A DNA stretch of 64,000 bases from Gemmatimonadota bacterium (GCA_039591655.1 JBDHDE010000002.1:39995-103994); one strand, 5' to 3'. Counted from the stretch's first letter, positions 42,121 to 54,851 are shown. Notes: generated from the letters alone by a model not told the origin. Made by a program: numbers and translations.

Positions 42121-43813
42121 AGCGGCGTCCCACCTCGGTCCTCGAGAGTATCACCATCGCCGGACGCCCGTGCACGTCGTGGGGCGGGAGCTCGCAGGCA
42201 AGCAGGCGCTGGATGAGCTCCTGCATCTCGACCGGGTCCAGGACCTGGCCGGCCTTGACCGCCGCGCGGCATCCATAGGTCGCCGCAAACCGCTCCAGCC
42301 GATTGCTCAGACCTCCCAACCGCCCCTGGGCGAGGTCGCCCACGAGCTCCTCGAAGCAGCGCCCGGCATCGAAGCGGGGGTGGGGGTTGGGCACGGCGTG
42401 CAGCACGACCGACCGACCCCCGAATGGCTCCACCTCGTAGCCCAGGCTGGTGAAGAGATCCCGGTGGGCGTCCACCGCCTCGAGCTCCTGCGGCGCCAGA
42501 TCCACCGTCAGAGGAAGCAAGAGCCGTTGCGCCACGGCCGCACCAGCGGCGAGCTGTGCCATGGCCTGCTCGTAGAGTACCCGCTCGTGCGCCGAGTGCT
42601 GGTCCACTACAGCCAGTCCTTCAGGGGTCTCGAACACAATGTAGGTGTTGAAGACCTGGAGGAGTGGACGCGACTCCGGCGGCGCGAACAGCGGCTCCGC
42701 CACCCCCAGCAGCGACTGCACCTCGCCCTCGACGTGCTCACGGGCCGCCTCGGCCCGCACCGTCGCCTCGCGCACCGCGGGGGCCCCAGGCGTCACATGC
42801 CTACTGCCGGCCACGGCCGCGGCCGCCACCGGCCGGAGGGCCGCCCGGACTCCCTCCTCGACCACGCGCTCCACGAACACCTTGTCGCGGAAACGCACCT
42901 CCAGTTTCGCCGGGTGGACGTTGACGTCCACGCGATCCCCGGGCACGTGGAGCGCGAGGAACAGTGAGGGCCGAACCCCCTGAGGGATCGTCGCGCGGTA
43001 TCCAGCTTCAGCCGCGCGCACGATGAAGGGGTTACGAAAGGGACGGCCGTTGACGAAGAGGTAGGCGCGGCGTCCGCTGCGGCGGGCAGCGGCCGGTCGT
43101 TGTACCAGGCCCCGCACCGTGGCGTAGCCGTCGTTGTGCTCCACGGGCACGAGCTGCTCGGCCAGCTCGCGCCCGAACAGCGCTGCGATCCGATCCGCCA
43201 CGCTCGCTACGCGGGGCGCTTCCGTCACGCGACGGCCATCACTGGTCAGGACGAACGAGACGTCCAGCCGCGCGAGGGCGAGCACGGCCAACGCCTCGAC
43301 GGCCGCACGGGTCTCGCTGCGGGCCGAGCGCAAGAACTTGCGCCGGGCCGGCGTCTTGGCGAAGAGCCTCCGCACGACGACCGTGGTCCCCCGGGTGCGT
43401 GCCACGTCCTCCACGGACTCGAGCCGTCCGCCCCGTACGGCAATCCGCACCCCCGTCCCGCCTTCGGCCGCCGCCGTCTCGAGCTCGAACACCGAGACGG
43501 CGGCAATGGCCGCCAGCGCCTCGCCGCGGAACCCGTAGGTCGGCACACCGATCAGCTCCGTGGCTGAGCGGATCTTCGAGGTGGCGTGGCGATCGATTGC
43601 GAGCACGGCGTCATCCCGGTCCATCCCGGCGCCGTCGTCGCCCACCCGGATGAGCGACTTGCCGCCGTCTTCCAGCTCCACGGTGACGTTGTGCGCCCCG
43701 GCGTCCAAGGCGTTCTCCACCAGCTCCTTGACGACCGACGCGGGACGTTCGACGACCTCGCCGGCGGCGATCTGATCGATCACCACCGTGGGAAGGATTG
43801 CGATGCGGCCCAC
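42107..43813 (-). CDS. mutL: DNA mismatch repair endonuclease MutL
   Basis: IAAGEVVERPASVVKELVENALDAG, RHATSKI, GFRGEAL, DVNVHPAK, DQHSAHERVLYE. Confidence 0.97.
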   Translation of the reverse strand: MGRIAILPTVVIDQIAAGEVVERPASVVKELVENALDAGAHNVTVELEDGGKSLIRVGDDGAGMDRDDAVLAIDRHATSKIRSATELIGVPTYGFRGEALAAIAAVSVFELETAAAEGGTGVRIAVRGGRLESVEDVARTRGTTVVVRRLFAKTPARRKFLRSARSETRAAVEALAVLALARLDVSFVLTSDGRRVTEAPRVASVADRIAALFGRELAEQLVPVEHNDGYATVRGLVQRPAAARRSGRRAYLFVNGRPFRNPFIVRAAEAGYRATIPQGVRPSLFLALHVPGDRVDVNVHPAKLEVRFRDKVFVERVVEEGVRAALRPVAAAAVAGSRHVTPGAPAVREATVRAEAAREHVEGEVQSLLGVAEPLFAPPESRPLLQVFNTYIVFETPEGLAVVDQHSAHERVLYEQAMAQLAAGAAVAQRLLLPLTVDLAPQELEAVDAHRDLFTSLGYEVEPFGGRSVVLHAVPNPHPRFDAGRCFEELVGDLAQGRLGGLSNRLERFAATYGCRAAVKAGQVLDPVEMQELIQRLLACELPPHDVHGRPAMVILSRTEVGRRFGRT

Positions 43814-46158
43814 TAGAGGGGCACCACCTCAGTGCGGAGCAGCCACCCCTGCACGACCCCGTCGCTCACCAGCACCCACGCTCCGTGCTCCCTCTGGATC
43901 AGCACCCCGGTGCCGGCGCCGAGCTCCCGCTCCGACGGCGCCGGGCCGTAGGGAGCCGCACGCAACGCAGTGCCATCCAGCATGACGAGGGCCACCGGCC
44001 TCGCGTAGCGAGAGGCGAAGGCGGCGCCGTAGCCAGCCACCAGCGCCGCCAGCACGAGCACCGGGACGGCACGGCGCACCGGTGTCCGAAGGGCGAGCAG
44101 CACCCAGCCCAGCACCCACAACCCCGCGGCCGCGGCCAGGGCCTCGCCCGGCGTCACGGGCGCTACGAAGGTGAGCCCGCCCGGCGGGGCATCCGGCGGG
44201 GCGCCCGTCTGGAGAGCCCGCCTGACCGTCTCGTCACGCGGAGTCAGCCGAGCTGCGCGGAGCCAGGCCGCTCTGGCGCGCACGTCTTCGCCGAGGCGGT
44301 CCAGAGCCGCACCGAGATTGTACCAGTGAGCCGCTGCGTAAGGGGTCGCGCGGGCCCGGGTGGCGAAACTATCGGCCGCGGGGCGCACTGCCCCAGCGTC
44401 GTACAGTCGCGCGGGCGACTGCCCATCGGCCGGCCCGGCCGAAACGAGCACCGCCAGCGCGAGGGCCAAGGCCGCCAGTGCAGTGCGCACCTTGCCCGTT
44501 CCTCCTCGCAGCGCCCGCAGCACCTCCTGCACCTCCGCGGTGAGCTCCTCGGGATCGGTGGAGCCTTCCGGGCCGTAGAGCGCCTGGCGCAGGCGGTCGC
44601 GCACCCGGGCTGCGTGTGTCGCCAGAGAGTCCTCGACTCCGGCAGCGCGCAGCGCGTCGGCCAAGCCGTCGCTCACCCGAAGCCGGGTCTGTGGCACGAA
44701 GCCCTCGAGAATGTCGCGAAACTCCAACTCCAGCGTCCGCAGGGTGAGCGTCTCGACCAAGCGGGGCGCCCGTCGCGGGCGCCGCAGCCGGCGAAGCCAC
44801 CGCGTGCGAGTGCGCAGCGCGACGGCAGCCAGCGGCGGCGCGACCCCTATCACGATCCACACCCACAGGGACACACGCGTCAGCCACGCGTCGAGCGACA
44901 AACCTCCGGGCGTGAGCAGCGGCCGGACCGTCTGCACCGGCGTGATGCCGGCCAGTCCGCTGGGTGTCACGAACTCGAGTGCAGGCGCGCGAAGCTGGAC
45001 GTAGCGATCGGTGTCGATATCGAAGTAGGCGTAGCTGGTCGCCGGCACGCGATGGGTGCCGGCGGAGTCGGCCACCACGAGGTAGTCGAACACCTTCGAC
45101 CCCCCCACCAGACCGTACTCGGCGGCGATGCTCACCGTCACTTCCTGGGGATATGCCCTCAGTCCGACCGGCCAGTCGAATTCCGGCTCGGGCCAGAGCG
45201 CCACGTTTCCCTGCCCCGTGAGCACGGCCCGGACCTGCGCCGCATCCCCCAGGCGCAGCTCGCCCGGGGGCGCATCCACCTGGAACAGGAGCCCGCCGCC
45301 CGCGGCGCCCGCATAGCCGCGCACGCCGCGCGGGCGAGGCAGGGCCGCCACCCGCACGGCCCGCGGCTCGCTCTGCACCTCGTGGCGCAGCTCCCGGCTG
45401 AGGAACGAGGAGGAGACGGGTACGCTATACGACACAGTAGCGCTGCCGATCTCCATCACACCGGCGGTCAGAGGGAAGACGACCCTGTGGAGCGCGAACA
45501 GGTCGTACCACACGCCGCGCACCCGCCGACTGGTGACGATCCCCAAGGGGGCCGGTCGATCGTAGGTCCAGGCGCCGCGGATCAGGGGTGGTTCCAGTGT
45601 GGGCGGGTTCCTCAGCCGGGCGCGGATGTCCCGGGGAAACCAGGCAACTACCACGACGTCCACCTGCTGGCCCAGCACCACCGAATCGGGGCTGGTGACG
45701 ACGGCTAGGCTCACCTCGTCGGGCACCACGTCCGGAGCCGGCGCTGCTTCGACCATCCGTTCAATGCGCGGATCCAAGGCCGTGGGTGCGGCGGTCGTGG
45801 GCGCCGATACAGTGATCCGGATGGGAGCTGTCTCGGCCGTCTCCTCACCCTGCCGCACCCGCACTCGCCCGATGGTGCCGATGCCAGGCCGCAGGGCCCT
45901 CAGGGTCAGACGCCGCGTTGTGATCCGGGCCGGCACCGGGCCCTCCACGCTCACGCGGGTCTGATCCCGGGCGCTCAGCAGCTCGAGGCCGAACAGGTCG
46001 GGGTCGCCGATCTCCACGGGAGCGCTCCCGCCTGGCGCCTCCACGGTGATGGTGAGCACCAGCTCCTCACCGACCTGGACCTCCTGCCGGTCCACCTCGG
46101 CGATCACCGCCAGCTGCTGCTGCAGCATGACGGCCGCGAGCAGGAGGATGGTCACCAT
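43813..46158 (-). CDS. BatD-like protein with C-terminal BatE-like (TPR plus SH3-like) region
   Basis: Ig-like BatD repeats (VDRQEVQVGE, G.GN), internal TM, HWYNLGAA TPR-like segment, terminal GAWVLV..GWL SH3b-like end; start trimmed to ATG 46158. Confidence 0.75.
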   Translation of the reverse strand: MVTILLLAAVMLQQQLAVIAEVDRQEVQVGEELVLTITVEAPGGSAPVEIGDPDLFGLELLSARDQTRVSVEGPVPARITTRRLTLRALRPGIGTIGRVRVRQGEETAETAPIRITVSAPTTAAPTALDPRIERMVEAAPAPDVVPDEVSLAVVTSPDSVVLGQQVDVVVVAWFPRDIRARLRNPPTLEPPLIRGAWTYDRPAPLGIVTSRRVRGVWYDLFALHRVVFPLTAGVMEIGSATVSYSVPVSSSFLSRELRHEVQSEPRAVRVAALPRPRGVRGYAGAAGGGLLFQVDAPPGELRLGDAAQVRAVLTGQGNVALWPEPEFDWPVGLRAYPQEVTVSIAAEYGLVGGSKVFDYLVVADSAGTHRVPATSYAYFDIDTDRYVQLRAPALEFVTPSGLAGITPVQTVRPLLTPGGLSLDAWLTRVSLWVWIVIGVAPPLAAVALRTRTRWLRRLRRPRRAPRLVETLTLRTLELEFRDILEGFVPQTRLRVSDGLADALRAAGVEDSLATHAARVRDRLRQALYGPEGSTDPEELTAEVQEVLRALRGGTGKVRTALAALALALAVLVSAGPADGQSPARLYDAGAVRPAADSFATRARATPYAAAHWYNLGAALDRLGEDVRARAAWLRAARLTPRDETVRRALQTGAPPDAPPGGLTFVAPVTPGEALAAAAGLWVLGWVLLALRTPVRRAVPVLVLAALVAGYGAAFASRYARPVALVMLDGTALRAAPYGPAPSERELGAGTGVLIQREHGAWVLVSDGVVQGWLLRTEVVPL

Positions 46159-47771
46159 TCCTTGCGCCCCCTGGTCTCCCGCTCCCGGGCCTGGCGCTGC
46201 AGCTGCCGGGCGCGGGTGCGGCGCTCTTCCTCGGCCATGGAGTTGAGGATCTGCTGTGCCTGGGCCGGCGAGAGTCCTTCGGGCGGTGGCTCGCTGGGCG
46301 GCGGCTCGCCACCCTCGCCGCCTCCGGAGGGAGGTGGCCCCGCAGCGTCCTGGGCCGGCATCCGACGGATTGTCAGCTCGAGGTTCCACTTGGCCGCATC
46401 GTGCCCCGGCTCCAGCAGCAGTGCCTCCCGATAGTGGCCTGCGGCCGCAGCGAGATGCTGGGCCGCGCGGCCCGAGTCCCGCTCGGCCTGACGTAGTCTC
46501 AGCAGACCGAGGTTGTACAGCGCGCGGAACCGGAGCTCCGGCTCCATAGAGGTGGCCGCGCGCTCCAGGGCGTGCTGGGCCAGGGTCGTGTCGTCCAGGG
46601 TCAAGGCCGCCGTCCCCAGGTTGAACCAGGCGGTGTCACCCCCTTCGCCGTCCTGCACTTGGGCCATGTATTGCTCCGCCGCCTCACGGAAAGCCCCCCG
46701 GGCCCACGCTCGATCCCCCTCGTTGGCCGTACCCTGGGCCTGAGCGTCGCGCCCCGGCCACAAGAGCAGCAGCAACGACACGAGAGCCAGCGAACGGCGG
46801 GTGAAGGTGTGGAGTAAGAGCAACACCGTCCCGGCGAGCAGTGGAATCCAGGCGCGGGAGATGTCCTCGGCCGCCGTCGAGGTAGCCTGCGGCGAGCGCT
46901 TGTACGCCGCCACCAGCTCGCGCACGGCCCCCGCCTGGTCGCCCAGCTGCGCTGCCACCAGCACTCCCTGAGCGGCATCGGCCACGGCCGTGAGTATATC
47001 GTCCCGCCTGCCCGTGGCCACAACTTCGCCCATGGGGTCGCGCTGGTAGCCGATCAGGGTTCCATCGACATCCCGCACCGGGATCGGCACCGGCTCGACC
47101 CCTCCCTCGGACACGACCACGAGCCGCACGCGCTCGCGGCGCAGCCGCTCGGCGGCGCTCACGATGGCCGCCAGCGAATCGTGGGCCTCGCCGTCGGTGA
47201 ACACCACCAGGACCCGATCCGCCACGGGATCGCCGGCGAACAGGAGCTCCCTCCCCTGCGACAGCATCGCATTGAACTCTGTCCCGCCCGCGCTCGTGAG
47301 GTCGGGATCCAGCGCGTCGATCAGCAGGTGCAGCGCGCCCCCATCCACGGTGAGCGGCGACAGCACGAAGCTCTGCCCCGCAAACGCGATGAGGCCCACC
47401 CGGTCGCCCCCCAGGTCGTGCACCAGCCGTCGTGCCTGCCGCTTGGCCCGCTCCAGGCGGGACGGGGCCACATCCTCCGCTAGCATCGAGCGGGAGATGT
47501 CCACCGCGATTACGAGATTGAGTCCCTTGGTCTCGGCCGTGACGACCCGACTGCCCCACCGCGGGCCGGCCAGGGCCCCTGCCGCTGCCACCGCCACGAG
47601 CCCCAGGACGAGCGGGCTCAGGCGCCCCATCCGGGCGGCCCGGGTAGCGAACGCCGCCGACCAGCGCCGGGCCCTACCCACCCGGACGGCCCTGCCCCAC
47701 CAGGCGAGGGCCGCCCCCAGTGCCCCTATCGCCGGGGCCAGCCAGATGAGCAGCGGCTGGTCGAAGCTCAT
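46152..47771 (-). CDS. BatB-type VWA protein fused to a BatC-type TPR region
   Basis: DISRSM (MIDAS), GLIAFAG, FTDGE, WFNLG, LYNLG, AKWNLE, Pro/Gln tail ending KEW. Confidence 0.85.
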   Translation of the reverse strand: MSFDQPLLIWLAPAIGALGAALAWWGRAVRVGRARRWSAAFATRAARMGRLSPLVLGLVAVAAAGALAGPRWGSRVVTAETKGLNLVIAVDISRSMLAEDVAPSRLERAKRQARRLVHDLGGDRVGLIAFAGQSFVLSPLTVDGGALHLLIDALDPDLTSAGGTEFNAMLSQGRELLFAGDPVADRVLVVFTDGEAHDSLAAIVSAAERLRRERVRLVVVSEGGVEPVPIPVRDVDGTLIGYQRDPMGEVVATGRRDDILTAVADAAQGVLVAAQLGDQAGAVRELVAAYKRSPQATSTAAEDISRAWIPLLAGTVLLLLHTFTRRSLALVSLLLLLWPGRDAQAQGTANEGDRAWARGAFREAAEQYMAQVQDGEGGDTAWFNLGTAALTLDDTTLAQHALERAATSMEPELRFRALYNLGLLRLRQAERDSGRAAQHLAAAAGHYREALLLEPGHDAAKWNLELTIRRMPAQDAAGPPPSGGGEGGEPPPSEPPPEGLSPAQAQQILNSMAEEERRTRARQLQRQARERETRGRKEW

Positions 47772-48751
47772 CACGGCACCCGCACGACAACCGTGGCCGC
47801 CAGCACCAGTTCCAGCGCTAACGCCCCGATCCCCACGAAGAGGGGCAGGTGGAAGGCCTCGTTGTACTGCGTGTAGCGCGTCACCACGACGGGGGTCTTC
47901 TCCAGGCGATCGATCTGCTGGAAGATGCGGTTGAGCGCCTCCGGGTCGGTGGCGCGAAAGTACCGCCCACCGGTGATCCGGGCGATGTCCTCGAGCAGCT
48001 CCTCGTCGATCCGCACGGGCAGCGTCTGATACCGCAGCTGTCCCTGGGTCCCCCGCCCGATAGGCATGGGTGCCTCACCCTCGGTCCCGACCCCCACGGT
48101 GTATATCCGGATCCCGAACTGCGCCGCGGCCTCGGCCGCGGTGCGGGGATCCAGCATGCCCCTGGTGTTCTCCCCGTCGGTCAGCAGCACCGCGACTTTG
48201 CTCGCGCCCGGCGCCCGACGCAGGCGGTTGGCCGCTGTCCCGATGGCGGTACCGATGGCCGTGCCGTCCTCGAGCTCTCCCACCCGAAGGCCCCGCACCG
48301 CCTGCTCCAGCACCGTGTAGTCCACTGTGATTGGCACGCGGGTGAGCGCCTCGCCGGCGAAGGCCACCAGGCCGATGCGATCGAACTCGCGTCCCGAAAC
48401 GAACGCCACGGACTGCTCCTTGGCCACGTCGAGACGGTTCGACGGCGCGAAGTCTTCGGCAAGCATGCTGCTGGACACGTCCACCGCCAGTACGATGGCG
48501 ATTCCCTCGCTGGTGGTGTCCGTGGAGGAGATCCCGTACTCGGGCCCTGCTGCCGCCACGATCCAGGCAGCCAGCGCCAGGGTCCGGAGTGCCGCGGGGA
48601 CCCCCGCGAGCCAGCGTCGCCTGGTGCGCGCCGCTCGGAGCTGCCGGGCGTCACTGTAGGACGCCACCGGGGGCGGGCGGCGGTGGCGGCGCCACCACCA
48701 CAGCGGGAGCGCCAGGAGCAGCAGCAGGACTAGGGGGCGCGCGAAGATCAT
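47771..48751 (-). CDS. batA: BatA-type VWA membrane protein
   Basis: DVSSSM, DRIGLVAFAG, GTAIG, LLTDGEN, IYTVGVG, TGGRYFRA; start trimmed to ATG 48751. Confidence 0.88.
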   Translation of the reverse strand: MIFARPLVLLLLLALPLWWWRRHRRPPPVASYSDARQLRAARTRRRWLAGVPAALRTLALAAWIVAAAGPEYGISSTDTTSEGIAIVLAVDVSSSMLAEDFAPSNRLDVAKEQSVAFVSGREFDRIGLVAFAGEALTRVPITVDYTVLEQAVRGLRVGELEDGTAIGTAIGTAANRLRRAPGASKVAVLLTDGENTRGMLDPRTAAEAAAQFGIRIYTVGVGTEGEAPMPIGRGTQGQLRYQTLPVRIDEELLEDIARITGGRYFRATDPEALNRIFQQIDRLEKTPVVVTRYTQYNEAFHLPLFVGIGALALELVLAATVVVRVP

Positions 48752-49563
48752 GACTCCAGCCGCTCTGCCAACCGCTCCGCCTGTTCCACCAGCTCCACGA
48801 CGTCGCTCGGCACAGCCGGGGAGAATCGGGCCCGCTCCAGGGCCCGCAGCAACTCGCTGAGGTCTCTCAAGGGCCAGTCCACCTCGGCGGCCCGCAGCAC
48901 CTCGAGGCACTCCTCGGTGTCCAGGTGGCGCCCGGCCTGGGGAACAAGCTCCGCGATGAGGCCCCGCATGGCGTCAGCGGTCACCGCTGCCACCGCCCGG
49001 GGCTCGCCGGCCGACATCCAGCGGTCCACCGGGGCAGGCGGACGCGCCACTGCAGCCGGATCATCCGGCGCGACCGGGCCGGGCCGGCGCCTGGCCGCGC
49101 CCCATGCCACCGTACCCAGGAGCACGGCGCACGTCATGACGATGAGCGGCAGCGGCGTCCTCGCGGCCCTGGTCACGGGCGCCAGGGCCGGCAGCGCCGG
49201 CGGCACGTGGTCGTCGGCCGGAAGCACGCTGGCCACGGTGATCCACGCGGTGTCCCCGAGCACCGTCTCCACTCGCCCGTCGGGATACAGCAGCTCCGCG
49301 CTGGGCATTGGGATCGCGTGCTCGCCGGGCTGGAACAGCGCCACGGTATAGAGGATCGTCAACGCGCCCTCGGCATAGGCCGCCCGAGGGGGGCTGAGCG
49401 GCTCCAGCAGGGGTGAGGCATCCAGCGTCTGGAGCCTCGCCTGCACGTCCGGCGGGGCGGAGAGACGCCGCACCAACCGCACCGTATCCCCCACGGTAGC
49501 GGCACCGGGCGCCGCCGACCACACTGGCGCCTGCAGCGCGATCAGGAGCAGCAGATATGTCAC
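48748..49563 (-). CDS. Bat-operon single-pass membrane protein
   Basis: Ig-like N-terminus, TM, C-terminal T.E and RARF motifs; lies between DUF58 and batA. Confidence 0.7.
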   Translation of the reverse strand: MTYLLLLIALQAPVWSAAPGAATVGDTVRLVRRLSAPPDVQARLQTLDASPLLEPLSPPRAAYAEGALTILYTVALFQPGEHAIPMPSAELLYPDGRVETVLGDTAWITVASVLPADDHVPPALPALAPVTRAARTPLPLIVMTCAVLLGTVAWGAARRRPGPVAPDDPAAVARPPAPVDRWMSAGEPRAVAAVTADAMRGLIAELVPQAGRHLDTEECLEVLRAAEVDWPLRDLSELLRALERARFSPAVPSDVVELVEQAERLAERLES

Positions 49564-50456
49564 CGGCGGAGCCGTCGGGCGCGCTCGGCGAACGCGCGGT
49601 GCAGCGCCTCGGCGTAGGGCTGGTCGGTGAGCAGCGCGATGTGGTCCACCTGCACCTGCTTGAGGGCCCGGGCCCGGTCGAGTCGCGCCTTCTCCGCGGC
49701 CATGGCCAAGGCCAGACGAGTGGGCCCGTGGGAGGTGTCCACCAGCACCTGCTCCCCCGACTCCGCGTCCTGTAGCTCGATCCAGCCGGCCTCGGGGAGC
49801 GCGAACTCCCGCGGATCGTCCACCGTGATGGCCACGACCTCATGGCGCCGGGAGAGGCGGCCCAGGGGCTCCTCCCAACCCGGTGCGCGGAAGTCCGACA
49901 GGACCACGACGATGGAGCCATGGCGCAGCAGCCGCGATGCATAGGCCAGAGCCGCCGCGATGTTGGTGTGCGGGTCCTGCGGTCGAAAGGCGAGGAGATC
50001 CCGGATGATACGGAGGGCGTGCAGCCGTCCCTTTCGTGGCGGGACCACGTGGTCGATGCCGCCGGAGAAGATGAGCGCTCCAACTCGGTCCTTCTGGCGC
50101 GCCGCCGCCAAGGCGAGCACCGCGGCGACCTCCACCCCCAACTCGGCCTTGGCCACCGGGGAGCCGAACTCCTCGGACCCCGAGCGATCGACGATGAGAA
50201 GCACGGTGAGCTCGCGCTCCTCCATGAAGACCTTCACATAGGGTGAGCCGATGCGGGCAGACACGTTCCAGTCGATCGACCGGTAGTCGTCACCCTGCTG
50301 GTAGGCCCGCACCTCGGCGAACTCCATGCCGTGGCCGCGGAAGACCGAGCGATATTCTCCGGAGAAGAGCGTGTTGACGAGCCGGCGCGTGCGCAGCTCG
50401 ATCGTTTTCACCTGCCGCAGTACGTCGGCCCCGACGACGCGGGACGGGTGGGTCAC
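49560..50456 (-). CDS. DUF58 (VWA-like) MoxR partner
   Basis: SVFRGHGMEFAEVRAYQQGDD, IDWNVSAR, EERE, DRSGS, LSDF. Confidence 0.92.
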   Translation of the reverse strand: MTHPSRVVGADVLRQVKTIELRTRRLVNTLFSGEYRSVFRGHGMEFAEVRAYQQGDDYRSIDWNVSARIGSPYVKVFMEERELTVLLIVDRSGSEEFGSPVAKAELGVEVAAVLALAAARQKDRVGALIFSGGIDHVVPPRKGRLHALRIIRDLLAFRPQDPHTNIAAALAYASRLLRHGSIVVVLSDFRAPGWEEPLGRLSRRHEVVAITVDDPREFALPEAGWIELQDAESGEQVLVDTSHGPTRLALAMAAEKARLDRARALKQVQVDHIALLTDQPYAEALHRAFAERARRLRR

Positions 50457-51427
50457 GGTACGTCCACGGCCTCCAGGATCTTGGCGATCACTCCGTCCGA
50501 CGAGACGTCTTCAGCCTCGGCCTCGAACGTGAGTAGCACGCGATGCCGCAACACGTCGGGAGCCATCGCCTTGACGTCCTCAGGAACGACGTACGCCCGA
50601 CCGCGCAGGAAGGCGTGGGCGCGGGCGGCCTGTGCCAGATAGATCGACGCGCGTGGGCTGGCCCCGTAGGCTATGAGAGGCCGCACATCGTGGAGGCCGA
50701 CGACCTGCGGTTCCCGCGTCGCCCTGACGACGTCCACAATGTAGTCCACGATCTTCTGGTCCATGTACAGCTCGGCGATCGTGCGCCGAATCGTGAGGAT
50801 GTCCTCAGGCCCGGCCACGCGTCCCACCGCGATCTCCTGCCCGCCGGCCATCCTCCATAGGATCTCCTTCTCGTCATCCCGGCCAGGATAGCCCACGAAC
50901 ACCTTCAACATGAAGCGATCGAGCTGCGCCTCGGGCAGCGGATACGTGCCCTCCTGCTCGATGGGGTTCTGGGTGGCGAGCACCAGAAACGGCTCGTCCA
51001 GGGCGTGGGTCTCGCTCCCGATGGTAACCTGCTTTTCCTGCATCGCCTCCAACAGAGCGGCCTGGACCTTCGCCGGCGCGCGGTTGATCTCGTCGGCCAG
51101 GATGATGTTGGCGAACAGCGGGCCGCGCTTGGGCCGGAACTCCCCGGTTCGCTGGTCGAAGACCATGGTGCCGATGATGTCTGCGGGAAGCAGGTCGGGG
51201 GTGAACTGAATCCGCTGGAAGCTCGTGCGGATCACCTCGGCGAGCGTGCGCACGGCCAGGGTCTTGGCCAGTCCCGGAACGCCTTCCAGCAGGATATGGC
51301 CCCCGGTGAGAAGACCGACCAGCAGCCGCTCCAACATCGCGTCCTGACCAACGACGCGCTTGCGGACCTCCTCGACCACGGCCGTCGTGACCGCGATTTC
51401 CGGGGCCTTCACGGCCCGCGAGGTCAC
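50453..51427 (-). CDS. moxR: MoxR-proper AAA+ ATPase
   Basis: GVPGLAKT (Walker A), RIQFTPDLLP, ADEINRA (Walker B), ATQNPIEQEGTYPLPEAQLDRF, GASPR. Confidence 0.96.
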   Translation of the reverse strand: MTSRAVKAPEIAVTTAVVEEVRKRVVGQDAMLERLLVGLLTGGHILLEGVPGLAKTLAVRTLAEVIRTSFQRIQFTPDLLPADIIGTMVFDQRTGEFRPKRGPLFANIILADEINRAPAKVQAALLEAMQEKQVTIGSETHALDEPFLVLATQNPIEQEGTYPLPEAQLDRFMLKVFVGYPGRDDEKEILWRMAGGQEIAVGRVAGPEDILTIRRTIAELYMDQKIVDYIVDVVRATREPQVVGLHDVRPLIAYGASPRASIYLAQAARAHAFLRGRAYVVPEDVKAMAPDVLRHRVLLTFEAEAEDVSSDGVIAKILEAVDVP

Positions 51428-53133
51428 CCCAGAGCCCTCGTCGCGGCGTTGCGTACCACGGCATCCCCGTCCTGCGCCAGCGCCATCAAGGCCCGCTGGG
51501 CCTCAGGCGTTCCGAGGGCGCCCAGGGCCTCGGTGGCAGCGGCGCGCACCCGCGGGTTGTGCCGTGGTTCCGGAACGCCCGGCTCCCCGTATGTGGTGAG
51601 GCAGCGAACCGTCGTGTCGTCCCCCAGCCGCCCCAGCGCCCAGAGGAGCTTCAAGCGCACATCCTCATCCCGCTCCACGCCCAGGCGTGCCACAATCAGC
51701 GGGGAGACGGCTGGATCGTTGCCGGCCACGAGGGCGCGGGCGGCACTGGCCCGCACCTCCGGCTCCGCATCCTTCAGCAGCAGCAACGCCATCTGGACGA
51801 TCTTGCGGCCTCCGATCTCGGCCATCGCTGCCGCTGCGTGCTCCCGGACCACGGCCGAGGGGTGGCGGGCACACTCCATGAGGGAGAACCGCGCCGCCAT
51901 GCCACCGACGGCACCCAGCAAGTCGACAGCCGCCACGATCACGTCGGGTCCCTCGCCCGACAGTCGGCGCCTGAGGGCGTGGGCCACACGCTCGCCGGCA
52001 CCCCGCAGGGCCTCCCGGTAGGCGGCACGCGTCTGCGGCGCGGCTCCCAGATAGGCATCCACCACGAACGGGCCGGCCCGCTCGCCGACCGCCGACACCG
52101 CCCGGATCAGTGCCTGCCGTTCATCCCGGGAGATCTCCGGGTCACCGATCCGCTGCACCATCCACACGAGGAGGGTGTCGTCCACCAGACGCGAGATCAC
52201 ATCGGTGGCCTGCATGCTGAGCTCGGGCTCGACGCGCTCGGAAGCCACGCGCTCCAACACGGCGACTACCTCGGCTAGGAAATGGGGCTGCCTGAGCGAG
52301 GCGAGCTCCGGGGCCAGCTCGGCGAGGCGCCGCAGGTTCCCCAATCTGGGCGCCGGGTCGGCACCCGGCATGAAATTGGACAGGAGGCGGCGCGCCTCGA
52401 TGTCCGGAGGGAGCGCCTCGGGACGGAACACCCCCGTGGAGCGCCACGAGAAGGGGGTGTCGCCTGCCTCCGGAACGGCCGTCGACTGCCTCGGCGCGGC
52501 GGACCGTTTGGTGCTCAACACCACCACGTCCCCGAGACCCTGATCGCCCAGCGGCAGTTCCCCCCGCGCCACCCGCAGCATGACACTGAGGTGCGCGGCG
52601 GTCGCTCCCGGCTGGACAACCAGGGTGCGCACCCCGCGCGTATGTAGCCGACGGGACAGCTCCACGAGGGCCGGGTTTCTTGGCAGCACCGGGGCTGCGT
52701 TCCAGGTGAGGCCCTTCAACCCAACCTTACACTCCACTGCTCCCCCGGCCACCATGTTGGGTAGCGTCGCCGAGACGACCTGGGTCGCCTCAGCCAGGGC
52801 GGGGTGGGTAGGCGGGTACAGGCGGGAGAGGTGGAAGACCTTGGCGACGGCCGAGAACGCGCACTCGACCCGCTGGATCGTGACGTCCGTCCCGCCGCGG
52901 CGCCGGTCGACGGTGCGCCGCTCGGCACGGCGGCGGCGATCCCGCCCAGTGCGGCGCAGGCGGCTGCGCCGGTCGGCCCCGCGCCGCCGCTCGCGGGCGA
53001 TGGGCAGCCGGGCAATCCGGCGCTCGTTGTGACGACGGTCCTGGCCCGAGCGGCGATCCCACCCGGAGCGACGCTCAACTATGACACGTCTATCGTTGGT
53101 GCGCGGCTGGAAACCCACAGCTTCAGTCATCAT
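51424..53133 (-). CDS. HEAT-repeat protein with N-terminal [DE]RR repeat tract
   Basis: 10 [DE]RR motifs in the first ~80 aa, LYPPTHP domain, C-terminal VRxxAAxAL HEAT repeats; GAGG SD 8 nt before ATG 53133; GTGA overlap with moxR. Confidence 0.85.
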   Translation of the reverse strand: MMTEAVGFQPRTNDRRVIVERRSGWDRRSGQDRRHNERRIARLPIARERRRGADRRSRLRRTGRDRRRRAERRTVDRRRGGTDVTIQRVECAFSAVAKVFHLSRLYPPTHPALAEATQVVSATLPNMVAGGAVECKVGLKGLTWNAAPVLPRNPALVELSRRLHTRGVRTLVVQPGATAAHLSVMLRVARGELPLGDQGLGDVVVLSTKRSAAPRQSTAVPEAGDTPFSWRSTGVFRPEALPPDIEARRLLSNFMPGADPAPRLGNLRRLAELAPELASLRQPHFLAEVVAVLERVASERVEPELSMQATDVISRLVDDTLLVWMVQRIGDPEISRDERQALIRAVSAVGERAGPFVVDAYLGAAPQTRAAYREALRGAGERVAHALRRRLSGEGPDVIVAAVDLLGAVGGMAARFSLMECARHPSAVVREHAAAAMAEIGGRKIVQMALLLLKDAEPEVRASAARALVAGNDPAVSPLIVARLGVERDEDVRLKLLWALGRLGDDTTVRCLTTYGEPGVPEPRHNPRVRAAATEALGALGTPEAQRALMALAQDGDAVVRNAATRALG

Positions 53134-53188
53134 CGACACGACCTCTGTGCTCGCGTGACACTGTCGAATTCGCTGTGGCGGTCATAGG

Positions 53189-53204
53189 GCAAGGAGCGTG
53201 CCGG
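53189..53204 (-). promoter_or_regulatory. sigma54 (-24/-12) promoter
   Basis: Minus strand CCGGCACGCTCCTTGC matches YTGGCACGnnnnTTGC with exact GG-N10-GC spacing; intergenic and oriented toward the HEAT gene. Confidence 0.7.
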
Positions 53205-53216
53205 GCATGGATTCCC

Positions 53217-54851
53217 CTAGCGCTTGATGCGCTCTCCACCTTCTTCGTTGCGGAAGATCCACGTGGCGAACCGGGGCGGCGCAATGGGGTCGGCGGCCTC
53301 GATCGCTCCCCACTCTACGCTGCTGTCCGATTCCGCACCGCGGTGGGCGGCCTGATCTGCCATGCGCTGCGCCCGGGCGATCCATACCTTGCAGTTCTCC
53401 GGGCGCACGTCCACCCACCCCCTGGCCACCGCCTGCTCCACGTCGTCATCCACCGGCTGAATGATGACGAGCTCTCCCCTATAAACCTTCCCGTCCGGCA
53501 CCACGATCGGAAGACCCACCGAGAGGATCGTCGCCCGGAGCTCCCCATCGCCGGCCACGAGCCGCACCGCCTCGGCCGACAGGGTCGCCGGGTCGCTCTC
53601 GGCCAGCTCGGCCACCGAGTCCCGGAGCCGCGACAGAATGAACGCCTCGTACAACGCCTTGGTAAGCCGCGGCGGTCCCAACATCTCAAAGGCGACGGAG
53701 CGGACGCCGTGCTCCCGCTCCAGGGCCGTGAGTCGCTCGATGGCGTGGGCCCGGAGGATCCCAGCCTGGTAGGTCGGCCCGGCGGTGGACGCGTCGAGCG
53801 CCGTCATGATGTCCCGGCCCGTGGGATGGCCCTGCAACTCGGACACGACGTAGGCCGCCACCTCCTCGGGCGTGATGAACTCCATCTGCCTGAGAGCCGT
53901 CACCGTCTCGAACTCGTCCCGCGCGAACAGGCCGTTCTCGCCACAGTCGGCCCACACCGACTCCAGGATCGATCCGGTATCCACCCAGCCCGAGGCGTTC
54001 GGCCCGAAGGCCTGGGCAACGGCCAGGGGTGCCGGACAATCCACCTTCTGGAGGGGTTTGCCCTTACGTCGGACCGGGCCGTGCGCGATCTGCCCCCAGG
54101 CAATCGCCGTCGTGGGCTTGATCTCTGTGGTAGCCGGGGCCCCCGGGGTGCGCGCCATGAGCCACAACAGGAGCGAGTGCGCGCCGGCCACCGCGGACTT
54201 GGTGAGCAGGGTACGAGAGGGCCGCTCTTCGGAGTGGGTGTAGGGAATGTTCAGACCCATCCCTCCCGTCCCACTCGTCCCGATCTTGACATATGCCTCC
54301 GTGCCAAAAGACCGAACGCACTCCAACATGATCTGCACGTGCCGGATGAGCTGCGGCATCGGGATCGAGAGCACATGCTCCTCTACCTGGTCCCTGGTGA
54401 CCGCTCCGGTCTGCGCCGCGGCGAGCAGATCACGTGCCGAGTGGAACACGTCCTGATACGCGAACGCCGTGGCGGTGTTGATGCAGTCGACCACGGCGTC
54501 GGGCTCGTAGCGCTTGAACAGCCGAAACAGGAAGCCCCGCTCCACCACCTCCTTGGTCAACTCGCCCAGGATGTCACCGAGCACCAGCTGACGGTGCGCC
54601 GGATCAGCCAGCAGCTCGCCACGGTCCAGCTTGGCCACCGTCGTCGGCACGAACACGTTGCCCCATTCGGTGACGATCTCGGTCCCGCCGGCGTGGGGAG
54701 CCAACCACAGGGCACCCTCCTCCACCTCGTCCTCGTACAAAGCCACCAGTACGATCCTTCTGGGTTGGAGCTCGAGGAGCCTCCGGGCCACCGCACGGCC
54801 CACCAACCCGCTGCCACCCAGAATGAGTATCGTCTTGCCCTTGAGTTCCAT
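53217..54851 (-). CDS. uncharacterised extended Rossmann-fold (SDR-like) protein
   Basis: ILILGGSGLVG nucleotide-binding loop; 544 aa; no canonical YxxxK recognised. Confidence 0.75.
   Translation of the reverse strand: MELKGKTILILGGSGLVGRAVARRLLELQPRRIVLVALYEDEVEEGALWLAPHAGGTEIVTEWGNVFVPTTVAKLDRGELLADPAHRQLVLGDILGELTKEVVERGFLFRLFKRYEPDAVVDCINTATAFAYQDVFHSARDLLAAAQTGAVTRDQVEEHVLSIPMPQLIRHVQIMLECVRSFGTEAYVKIGTSGTGGMGLNIPYTHSEERPSRTLLTKSAVAGAHSLLLWLMARTPGAPATTEIKPTTAIAWGQIAHGPVRRKGKPLQKVDCPAPLAVAQAFGPNASGWVDTGSILESVWADCGENGLFARDEFETVTALRQMEFITPEEVAAYVVSELQGHPTGRDIMTALDASTAGPTYQAGILRAHAIERLTALEREHGVRSVAFEMLGPPRLTKALYEAFILSRLRDSVAELAESDPATLSAEAVRLVAGDGELRATILSVGLPIVVPDGKVYRGELVIIQPVDDDVEQAVARGWVDVRPENCKVWIARAQRMADQAAHRGAESDSSVEWGAIEAADPIAPPRFATWIFRNEEGGERIKR

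Follow-up and report, generated by a model that had tools for sequence, protein, structure and literature searches.

A predicted sigma-54 promoter and an arginine-rich N-terminal extension on an optional HEAT-repeat gene ahead of a MoxR–Bat operon in Gemmatimonadota

Here we analyse a 64,000-nucleotide (nt) stretch of a Gemmatimonadota genome (GCA_039591655.1, JBDHDE010000002.1:39995-103994; hereafter referred to as the window, with positions counted from its first letter), in which a gene for a HEAT-repeat protein with an arginine-rich N-terminal extension (RR-HEAT) directly precedes a MoxR–DUF58–BatA–BatB–BatD stress operon and is itself preceded by a -24/-12 element of the sigma-54 type. 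The best explanation of the data as a whole, to which we assign a probability of roughly 0.6, is that a separable accessory HEAT gene captured a sigma-54 promoter, together with the arginine-rich head, at the level of the genus. The genome of the window (G000) comprises 3.3 Mb in 149 contigs and is 95% complete; the window has a G+C content of 69%, and all genes of the HEAT–moxR finding lie on its minus strand.

The element occupies positions 53188..53204 of the minus strand (CCGGCACGCTCCTTGCC; also written CGGCACGCTCCTTGCC for 53203-53188 and CCGGCACGCTCCTTGC for 53204-53189) and has the form CGGCACG-N4-TTGCC, in which the GG (53202-53201) and GC (53190-53189) doublets are spaced by exactly 10 nt. 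It begins 12 nt (53216-53205) past the TAG stop codon (53219-53217) of a gene for an SDR-like Rossmann protein and lies 44–47 nt upstream of the RR-HEAT start codon, within the 83-nt gap that separates this stop from the ATG at 53133, and a GAGG sequence (53145-53142) is found 8 nt upstream of the ATG. An earlier sequence-only reading of this DNA had described a near-consensus element in an 83-bp gap before a 569-residue HEAT gene, 12 nt past the SDR-like stop, and all of this is seen in the sequence. Transcription is predicted to start at ~53177, 12 nt past the GC, and the predicted 5′ untranslated region (53134..53177, minus strand) contains a conserved block, ATTCGACAGTGTCACGC (53169-53153), in addition to the GAGG. 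Folding of this leader revealed no significant RNA structure (z-scores of -1.8 and -0.6). A sigma-70-type reading of two conserved blocks (TTGCCC and ATTCGA, 17–18 nt apart) was also considered and rejected: by eye the second hexamer matches at one of six positions, and a consensus scan found no sigma-70-type site at these blocks.

Conservation in a second species of the genus, G010, is arguably the strongest single argument that the element functions. Among the 11 species of the genus, a group of sediment bacteria, in our collection, the RR-HEAT gene form and its promoter are present in two, G000 and G010. DNA homology between them (82.5% over 1798 bp) begins ~3 nt upstream of the element, where the DNA directly beyond is unalignable, and stops just past the HEAT stop codon. 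Within this segment the element is identical at 19 of 19 positions, the leader block at 16 of 17 (ATTCGACNGTGTCACGC) and GAGGTCGT at eight of eight; the GAGG region is also conserved, and positions from roughly -11 to +7 vary. The G010 gene resides at an unrelated locus, flanked on one side by a pseudopilin cluster, a response-regulator gene and tRNA-Gln and on the other by three divergent GAF-PAS hybrid histidine kinases. It is monocistronic and far from the SDR-like gene and, because its neighbour is divergent, no upstream read-through is possible there. Since the homology spans the promoter, the leader and the gene, these travelled together as one unit. A perfect 16-bp GC-rich hairpin (z-score of -4.2) follows RR-HEAT in G010; the cassette ends 70 nt from the convergent tRNA-Gln gene, with the hairpin between them (region L003:1359-1500). 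Scans of metagenome contigs for further close relatives with DNA found none.

The gene for sigma-54, rpoN, whose presence the sequence-only reading had left to be confirmed, was found on contig C2 of G000 (PF04552, 220 bits), and the genome encodes nine strong PF00158 proteins, that is, enhancer-binding ATPases (bEBPs), eight of which carry a Fis-type helix–turn–helix (HTH_8). One bEBP (L062; C95:5993-7231, plus strand; 412 amino acids) is apparently truncated, its sigma-54 domain ending at profile position 147 of 168, without lid or helix–turn–helix; a top-scoring sigma-54-type site lies near it, at C95:9959-9974. We scored the genome with a generic sigma-54 matrix and counted as intergenic the sites oriented toward a gene within 200 nt. 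At 11.5 bits or more, 22 of 216 sites with the correct spacer were intergenic and so oriented, compared with 11/292, 11/197, 8/263 and 7/212 at control spacers; the best of them precede a bEBP gene, clpB, dnaK, lon and an Arg-rich zinc-ribbon gene. In a survey of G000 and 29 relatives of the same order (with one locus from the unpublished genome G023), 26 of 30 clpB loci carry [C/G/A]GGCA[C/T]G-N4-TTGC[T/C/A] within 260 nt of the start, with invariant doublets and varying spacers, and 25 of the 29 related genomes have it. Such an element also precedes dnaK in 24 of 30 loci, mostly ~70 nt before the start, against 1/30 and 2/30 for control spacers.

For a lineage matrix we used the 25 clpB sites found outside G000; this matrix has a maximum of 18.45 bits, and the HEAT element scores 17.47. 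Nine genome sites reach this score, and three of them are intergenic and oriented toward a gene: those before clpB, before a lipoprotein gene that neighbours a bEBP gene, and the HEAT element itself. At control spacers, 3, 12, 3 and 5 sites (23 in total) score as high, none of them intergenic and oriented. The lineage form, with C or G rather than T at -26 and often C (C/T) at -11, was read from the data. It is therefore the placement and the lineage fit, and not the bare pattern, that mark the element as non-random. With rpoN and nine bEBPs in the genome, the fit to the lineage consensus and 19/19 identity at a break in synteny, the element is in all likelihood a genuine sigma-54 promoter, as first proposed from the sequence.

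The junction between the HEAT gene and its upstream neighbour has been remodelled in this genus. Unlike the gapped arrangement of G000, the HEAT gene is closely, and translationally, coupled to the preceding gene in other loci: in at least 36 of 44 its start overlaps the upstream stop or follows it within 8 nt, and a comparable gap, an Arg-rich head and a matching element are absent from all 44. The 220 nt preceding each of these starts yielded, in total, a single stray sigma-54-like match of 8 bits or more. Conservation of the GG-N10-GC motif, which the sequence-only reading had named as a check, thus holds for G010 and fails in the other orthologues, which have no gap of this size. All other orthologues examined begin M-x(3-8)-[VIL][ED]-x-x-L-G/A, without the Arg-rich head, and the ancestral start position in G000 holds no start codon. 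Because no other orthologue shows them, the promoter, the gap and the head are best regarded as a genus-level innovation.

A remnant in a congener, G001, bears on the timing. Its SDR–moxR gap (252 nt, L040:306-557) contains a 69-codon open reading frame (ORF) that is a remnant of the Arg-rich start of RR-HEAT; the start of this remnant aligns with RR-HEAT residues 4–51 at 48% identity over 48 amino acids (pairwise E of 4.6e-11, composition correction off), and the C-terminal end of RR-HEAT may also be kept there. The sigma-54 element is not kept in the G001 gap. Given this remnant, the genus ancestor had RR-HEAT at the present position, and a later deletion removed it. The genome holds no DNA paralogue of the inserted 357 bp, so recent duplication does not explain the insert. 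In the scenario that we favour, ~340 bp would have replaced the tight SDR/HEAT stop–start junction in the genus ancestor, and the replacement would have brought in the 83-nt gap, the sigma-54 promoter, the 5′ leader and the 85-residue Arg-rich [DE]RR-repeat head.

The RR-HEAT gene (51424..53133, minus strand) encodes 569 amino acids from the ATG at 53133 (571 from 53139; in relatives the start is the next ATG, 53130) and matches the Pfam profiles HEAT_2 (81 bits) and HEAT (49 bits). Its N-terminal extension of ~85 residues (52879..53133, minus strand), rich in arginine and built of [DE]RR repeats, occurs only in this gene form. It is a coding segment, because its 85 codons align between G000 and G010 without insertions or deletions, the differences are biased to the third codon position (11, 8 and 23 by position), and metagenomic relatives keep it: P0003 (88%), P0004 (84%) and P0005 have the head at 84–88% identity with the same start, MTE. 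Neither the head nor its C64 paralogue matches a Pfam or NCBIfam family. The head is followed by a conserved α/β domain with the motif FRLxRxYPxxHP (52513..52878, minus strand; from an alignment of 38 orthologues) and by a HEAT/ARM-type α-solenoid (residues 242–568; 51427..52407, minus strand), identified from the structure model and Foldseek.

The structure model, computed from a 42-sequence alignment, has a mean predicted local distance difference test score (pLDDT) of 83. Residues 1–81 are modelled with low confidence, including a long helix at residues 26–78 (pLDDT of ~58); the α/β domain (residues 85–206), with its invariant R-x-Y-P-x-x-H-P, is confident and is followed by a disordered linker; and residues 242–568 form helical repeats with a pLDDT of about 90 or more. 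Foldseek aligned the solenoid with alphaRep, armadillo, importin-α and PP2A-A structures at E of ~1e-8 to 1e-6, which are generic matches. Folded alone, the α/β domain reached a pLDDT of 93.7; Foldseek found no match for it at E ≤0.001, with only GAF/PelD rows at E of ~1, and VIA-align returned only helical-hairpin matches (Z up to 7.2) over residues 1–48. Repeats of the form [DE]RR-S/T-G-x-[DE]RR also head at least five other G000 proteins, encoded at C64:7349-7834 (minus), C83:5650-6450 (plus), C1:~20.0-20.9 kb (minus), C33:57.9 kb (plus) and C117:4.0-4.3 kb (minus), where the repeat head is fused to a zinc ribbon (C64), a zinc ribbon and a receiver (C83) or a receiver (C1). The C64 gene has TGGCACGGGACGTGCT upstream, 12 nt past the stop codon of the preceding gene. 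A literature search for Arg-rich [DE]RR repeats found no description of them.

Across relatives, the HEAT gene and the Bat operon are separable. The HEAT-core family (residues ~88–568) is present in 45 of 301 genomes of the order, with 28/136 in the family of G000 (f1), 0/137 in f2 and 16/27 in a sister family (f3); a sample of 401 genomes of the phylum yielded 37 with this protein family, all of them in f1 or f3. Both tallies include the unpublished genome G221. Of 47 HEAT loci, 34 have the SDR-like gene directly upstream, seven have an RluB-like gene there and four a contig end, and the neighbour was unclear in two (G010 and G083), although closer inspection of the G083 locus placed the SDR gene upstream there too. 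Downstream, the automatic analysis found MoxR in 28 f1 loci, MutL in 14 f3 loci, a contig end in two and neither gene in G010. In G018 and G151 a partial HEAT match is followed by MoxR, which gives HEAT–moxR in 30 of 31 HEAT-bearing f1 genomes; within f1, HEAT precedes moxR whenever it is present at this locus. The gap is 0–60 nt in the 28 loci, six of which lack the SDR-like gene.

The SDR-like gene adjoins moxR without HEAT in 14 genomes, comprising all 10 congeners (G010 included) and G022, G011, G019 and G033. The distance to moxR is -1 to 58 nt at 12 of these junctions, the remaining ones measuring 182 and 252 nt, and none of the 14 contains a sigma-54-like site (best, 7.7 bits). In f3, all 14 determinable loci read SDR–HEAT–mutL without a Bat operon, and two genomes have SDR and mutL directly adjoining; MoxR homologues (47–52% identity) occur elsewhere in four of five f3 genomes checked, and the fifth (G099, 72% complete) yielded none. 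HEAT thus occurs without Bat in the 14 f3 loci and at the G010 RR-HEAT locus, and Bat without HEAT in the 14 genomes above. The HEAT–moxR synteny that the sequence-only reading had also named as a check therefore holds within f1; it breaks down in the f3 loci, at the unlinked G010 locus and in the congeners that lack HEAT. HEAT cannot be counted as an obligate component of the Bat operon, given that all four combinations of HEAT and Bat presence occur. On the evidence of gene order, it is a recurrent but optional neighbour of the MoxR/Bat operon rather than a fixed part of it.

In the mechanism that we propose, sigma-54 RNA polymerase holoenzyme would bind at 53203-53188, one of the bEBP ATPases of the genome would open the complex on a stress signal, and transcription would start near 53177. 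The transcript would run on from RR-HEAT into moxR…batD, given that the HEAT stop overlaps the moxR start and that no credible terminator intervenes, so that an inducible input would be added to read-through from rluB and the SDR-like gene. A stress input is plausible because the Bat operon of Riemerella is described as heat- and oxidative-induced in passages of PMC11834572. The HEAT protein would serve as a solenoid scaffold, a separable accessory and not a constitutive MoxR/Bat subunit.

Several points weigh against this capture reading, and some of them favour an alternative in which the element is a chance, non-promoter sequence, with RR-HEAT and the Bat operon transcribed only by read-through from promoters upstream of rluB and the SDR-like gene. 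The bare pattern GGCACG-N4-TTGC has five occurrences across the 3.3 Mb, and spacings off by one give 5 and 11; taken alone it is no more frequent than chance, with no genome-wide enrichment. The element scores 11.9 bits with the generic matrix, a value reached by ~156 genome sites and similarly often at wrong spacings. Gene calls for the intergenic counts were crude, GC3-based (G+C at third codon positions), covered 83% of the genome and have known misses, and the clpB-matrix fit is partly circular because the matrix was seeded with the generic one. No k-mer at comparable positions marks an upstream activator site common to G000 and G010; no perfect inverted repeat was found upstream of the element in G000, and G010 has one palindrome, at -133. 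Our search found no RNA runs holding the locus, so the start site is a prediction; the conservation of the element comes from one pairwise comparison, G010 being the only relative that gives DNA; and read-through into moxR is deduced from the gene overlap. The Bat operon of relatives, moreover, follows the SDR-like gene without any sigma-54-like site (the 14 junctions described above). Set against a chance origin are the 19/19 identity right at the boundary of the segment shared with G010, whose locus has no source of read-through, and the near-perfect fit to a lineage consensus whose sites are intergenic only at the correct spacing, and we consider such an origin distinctly unlikely.

Two further alternatives accept the promoter and assign the HEAT protein a different partner. 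The sequence-only reading took HEAT for a dedicated leading scaffold or adaptor of MoxR–DUF58–Bat, with the Arg repeats as a sensor and envelope assembly gated by sigma-54. HEAT does stand directly before moxR in the 28 f1 loci (30 of 31 genomes with G018 and G151), a regularity that counts against capture by a mere accessory inasmuch as a functional HEAT–MoxR link may underlie it; the six f1 loci without the SDR-like gene keep HEAT–moxR, and the stop–start overlap in the window and the promoter evidence point the same way. Adjacency within one family may nevertheless be inherited gene order, and the idea of a dedicated scaffold fails where the two are apart: no HEAT gene accompanies the Bat operon in 14 genomes, among them 10 of 10 congeners, f3 has SDR–HEAT–mutL without Bat (with MoxR elsewhere in four of five), RR-HEAT stands alone and monocistronic in G010, and G001 deleted the gene yet kept its Bat operon. 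Nothing was found that points to sensing or to an envelope role, and we regard this proposal as unlikely. Alternatively, the HEAT core could work together with the Rossmann (PF27054-type) enzyme encoded upstream, in which case the place of HEAT before moxR would be an accident of locus history and the promoter would merely uncouple HEAT from that enzyme. This accords with an SDR-like gene upstream in 34 of 47 loci and in both families, with at least 36 of 44 loci in which stop and start overlap or are separated by ≤8 nt, and with an SDR–HEAT pair in f3 in the absence of any Bat operon. It sits less well with the seven loci in which HEAT directly follows rluB without an SDR-like gene, with at least 16 genomes that have the SDR-like gene without HEAT, and with the distance between RR-HEAT and the SDR-like gene in G010; we hold such a partnership possible but doubtful. 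Genus-level capture by an accessory gene remains the reading that we prefer.

The genes discussed lie within a conserved housekeeping string, scpA-scpB-rluB…mutL-miaA, whose rluB–mutL interval is made up of three optional modules: the SDR-like gene, the lineage-restricted HEAT-repeat gene and the MoxR–DUF58–BatA–BatB–BatD stress operon. The string enters the interval with an RluB/RsuA-like pseudouridine synthase (55582-54866, minus strand; ORF and Pfam), followed by the SDR-like gene (53217..54851, minus strand), the usual upstream partner of HEAT. Its 544-residue product has a weak N-terminal Epimerase match in Pfam; beyond the first 50 residues, no Pfam or NCBIfam family and no solved structural relative was found. 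In a protein atlas, PF27054 is present in 96–98% of the members of its clusters, and the clusters of both the Rossmann protein and the HEAT protein are commonest in Gemmatimonadota. The Rossmann protein is kept in 26 of 41 relatives at 57–80% identity, usually between rluB and HEAT or moxR.

Downstream, the moxR start codon, GTG at 51427, overlaps the end of the HEAT ORF (51424) in GTGA, and the Bat genes follow in the order that the sequence-only reading had given, as ORFs and Pfam matches confirm; relatives share this order. All on the minus strand, they encode a MoxR AAA+ ATPase of the MoxR-proper type (50453..51427; AAA_3 at 223 bits, with AAA_lid_2; 71–94% identity to relatives), a DUF58/VWA protein (49560..50456; DUF58 at 228 bits), a 271-residue membrane protein without a Pfam or NCBIfam family (48748..49563), BatA (47771..48751; BatA N-terminal domain and VWA), a BatB-like protein (46152..47774; VWA_2, VWA and TPR_2) and a BatD-like protein with a TPR tail (43813..46158; BatD and TPR_2). 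BatA and BatD probably start at 48751 and 46158, respectively, and the BatA N terminus, MIFARP, matches relatives in the alignment. The 271-residue membrane protein occupies the same place, between DUF58 and BatA, in most Bat loci examined (30–64% identity, tblastn). The operon interior contains no convincing terminator, and MutL and then MiaA lie downstream of the Bat genes. A 6531-nt contig from a public sediment run carries moxR–HEAT–gap–SDR with five differences from the window; this run may be the sample that yielded the genome. In other contigs from public sediment runs, SDR is joined to moxR without HEAT.

The heat-shock promoters encountered here, in bacteria widespread in sediment and soil, may matter more than the HEAT–moxR finding itself. 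No RpoH was found in G000 at the family cut-off (best, 173 bits against 323), and this, with the sigma-54-type elements before clpB and dnaK, suggests that the heat-shock regulon of this order is enhancer-dependent; a literature search for a sigma-54 heat-shock regulon here found no paper. In the survey for clpB and dnaK (loci L144-L173 and L174-L203), the G000 elements lie at C7:47710-47725 (plus) and C5:63814-63829 (minus), and similar sites stand before lon (C41) and an Hsp20-like gene (C71:10221). On a bolder reading, RR-HEAT would be a stress-induced adaptor in a sigma-54 heat-shock regulon (clpB, dnaK and probably lon and hsp20, in this Gemmatimonadota order) that replaces sigma-32, its solenoid bringing clients to MoxR and its head acting as a cis-inhibitory or polyanion-binding switch. 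We consider this a long shot; if true, RR-HEAT would be made together with MoxR and Bat on induction, a constitutive accessory gene having been rewired into a stress regulon by capture of a promoter and an N terminus. The locus offers a clean, datable case of gene rewiring, in which a promoter, a leader and an added N-terminal module took the place of a tight stop–start junction; the rewired unit then relocated as a whole in one species and was deleted in others. That HEAT before moxR is recurrent yet dispensable in one Gemmatimonadota family also counsels caution against calling it a core Bat component.

Compared with known systems, the operon has the gene set and order of Bat (Bacteroides aerotolerance) operons: MoxR (AAA_3), DUF58, a small membrane protein, BatA, BatB and BatD. 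According to passages of PMC11834572, Bat operons have moxR at the front and are induced by heat and oxidative stress, and that of Riemerella is under PhoP control. By contrast, moxR is not first here: a HEAT gene is coupled ahead of it, the string continues from the SDR-like gene, and the candidate control element is of the sigma-54 type. Literature searches on MoxR, DUF58, BatA and aerotolerance, and on MoxR with HEAT repeats, found no HEAT gene leading a Bat operon. The sole printed MoxR–HEAT link that they found is a passage on VMAP ternary conflict systems (Kaur et al. 2020, PMC7159879), in which HEAT/TPR repeats take the effector position of vWA proteins; as that passage describes them, the repeats are fused to vWA and the ATPase belongs to the bpMoxR clade, whereas HEAT is a separate gene here. 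The window MoxR scores 223 bits with AAA_3, as given above, against 58 bits with bpMoxR.

Chaperone and turnover functions are over-represented near sigma-54 sites according to Francke et al. 2011 (PMC3162934), the main-text passages of which name neither clpB, dnaK nor MoxR. The lineage form described above, with C or G for T at -26 and often C at -11, sets the present sites apart from the general pattern. Sigma-54 promoters follow the consensus TGGCACG-N4-TTGCW; the HEAT element matches it at 10 of 12 positions with GG and GC 10 nt apart, and its transcription start is a predicted one. Importin-α carries a basic N-terminal IBB segment ahead of its ARM solenoid, and RR-HEAT likewise has a basic helical N terminus before a solenoid; this is an analogy only, without sequence relation and with generic structural matches, and the notion that the solenoid might bind the Arg-rich head in cis is pure speculation. 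Collectively, the operon is an ordinary Bat operon with a MoxR-proper ATPase and the element is of an ordinary promoter type; what is new is their lineage-specific combination, the capture of a promoter and an N terminus by an accessory gene.

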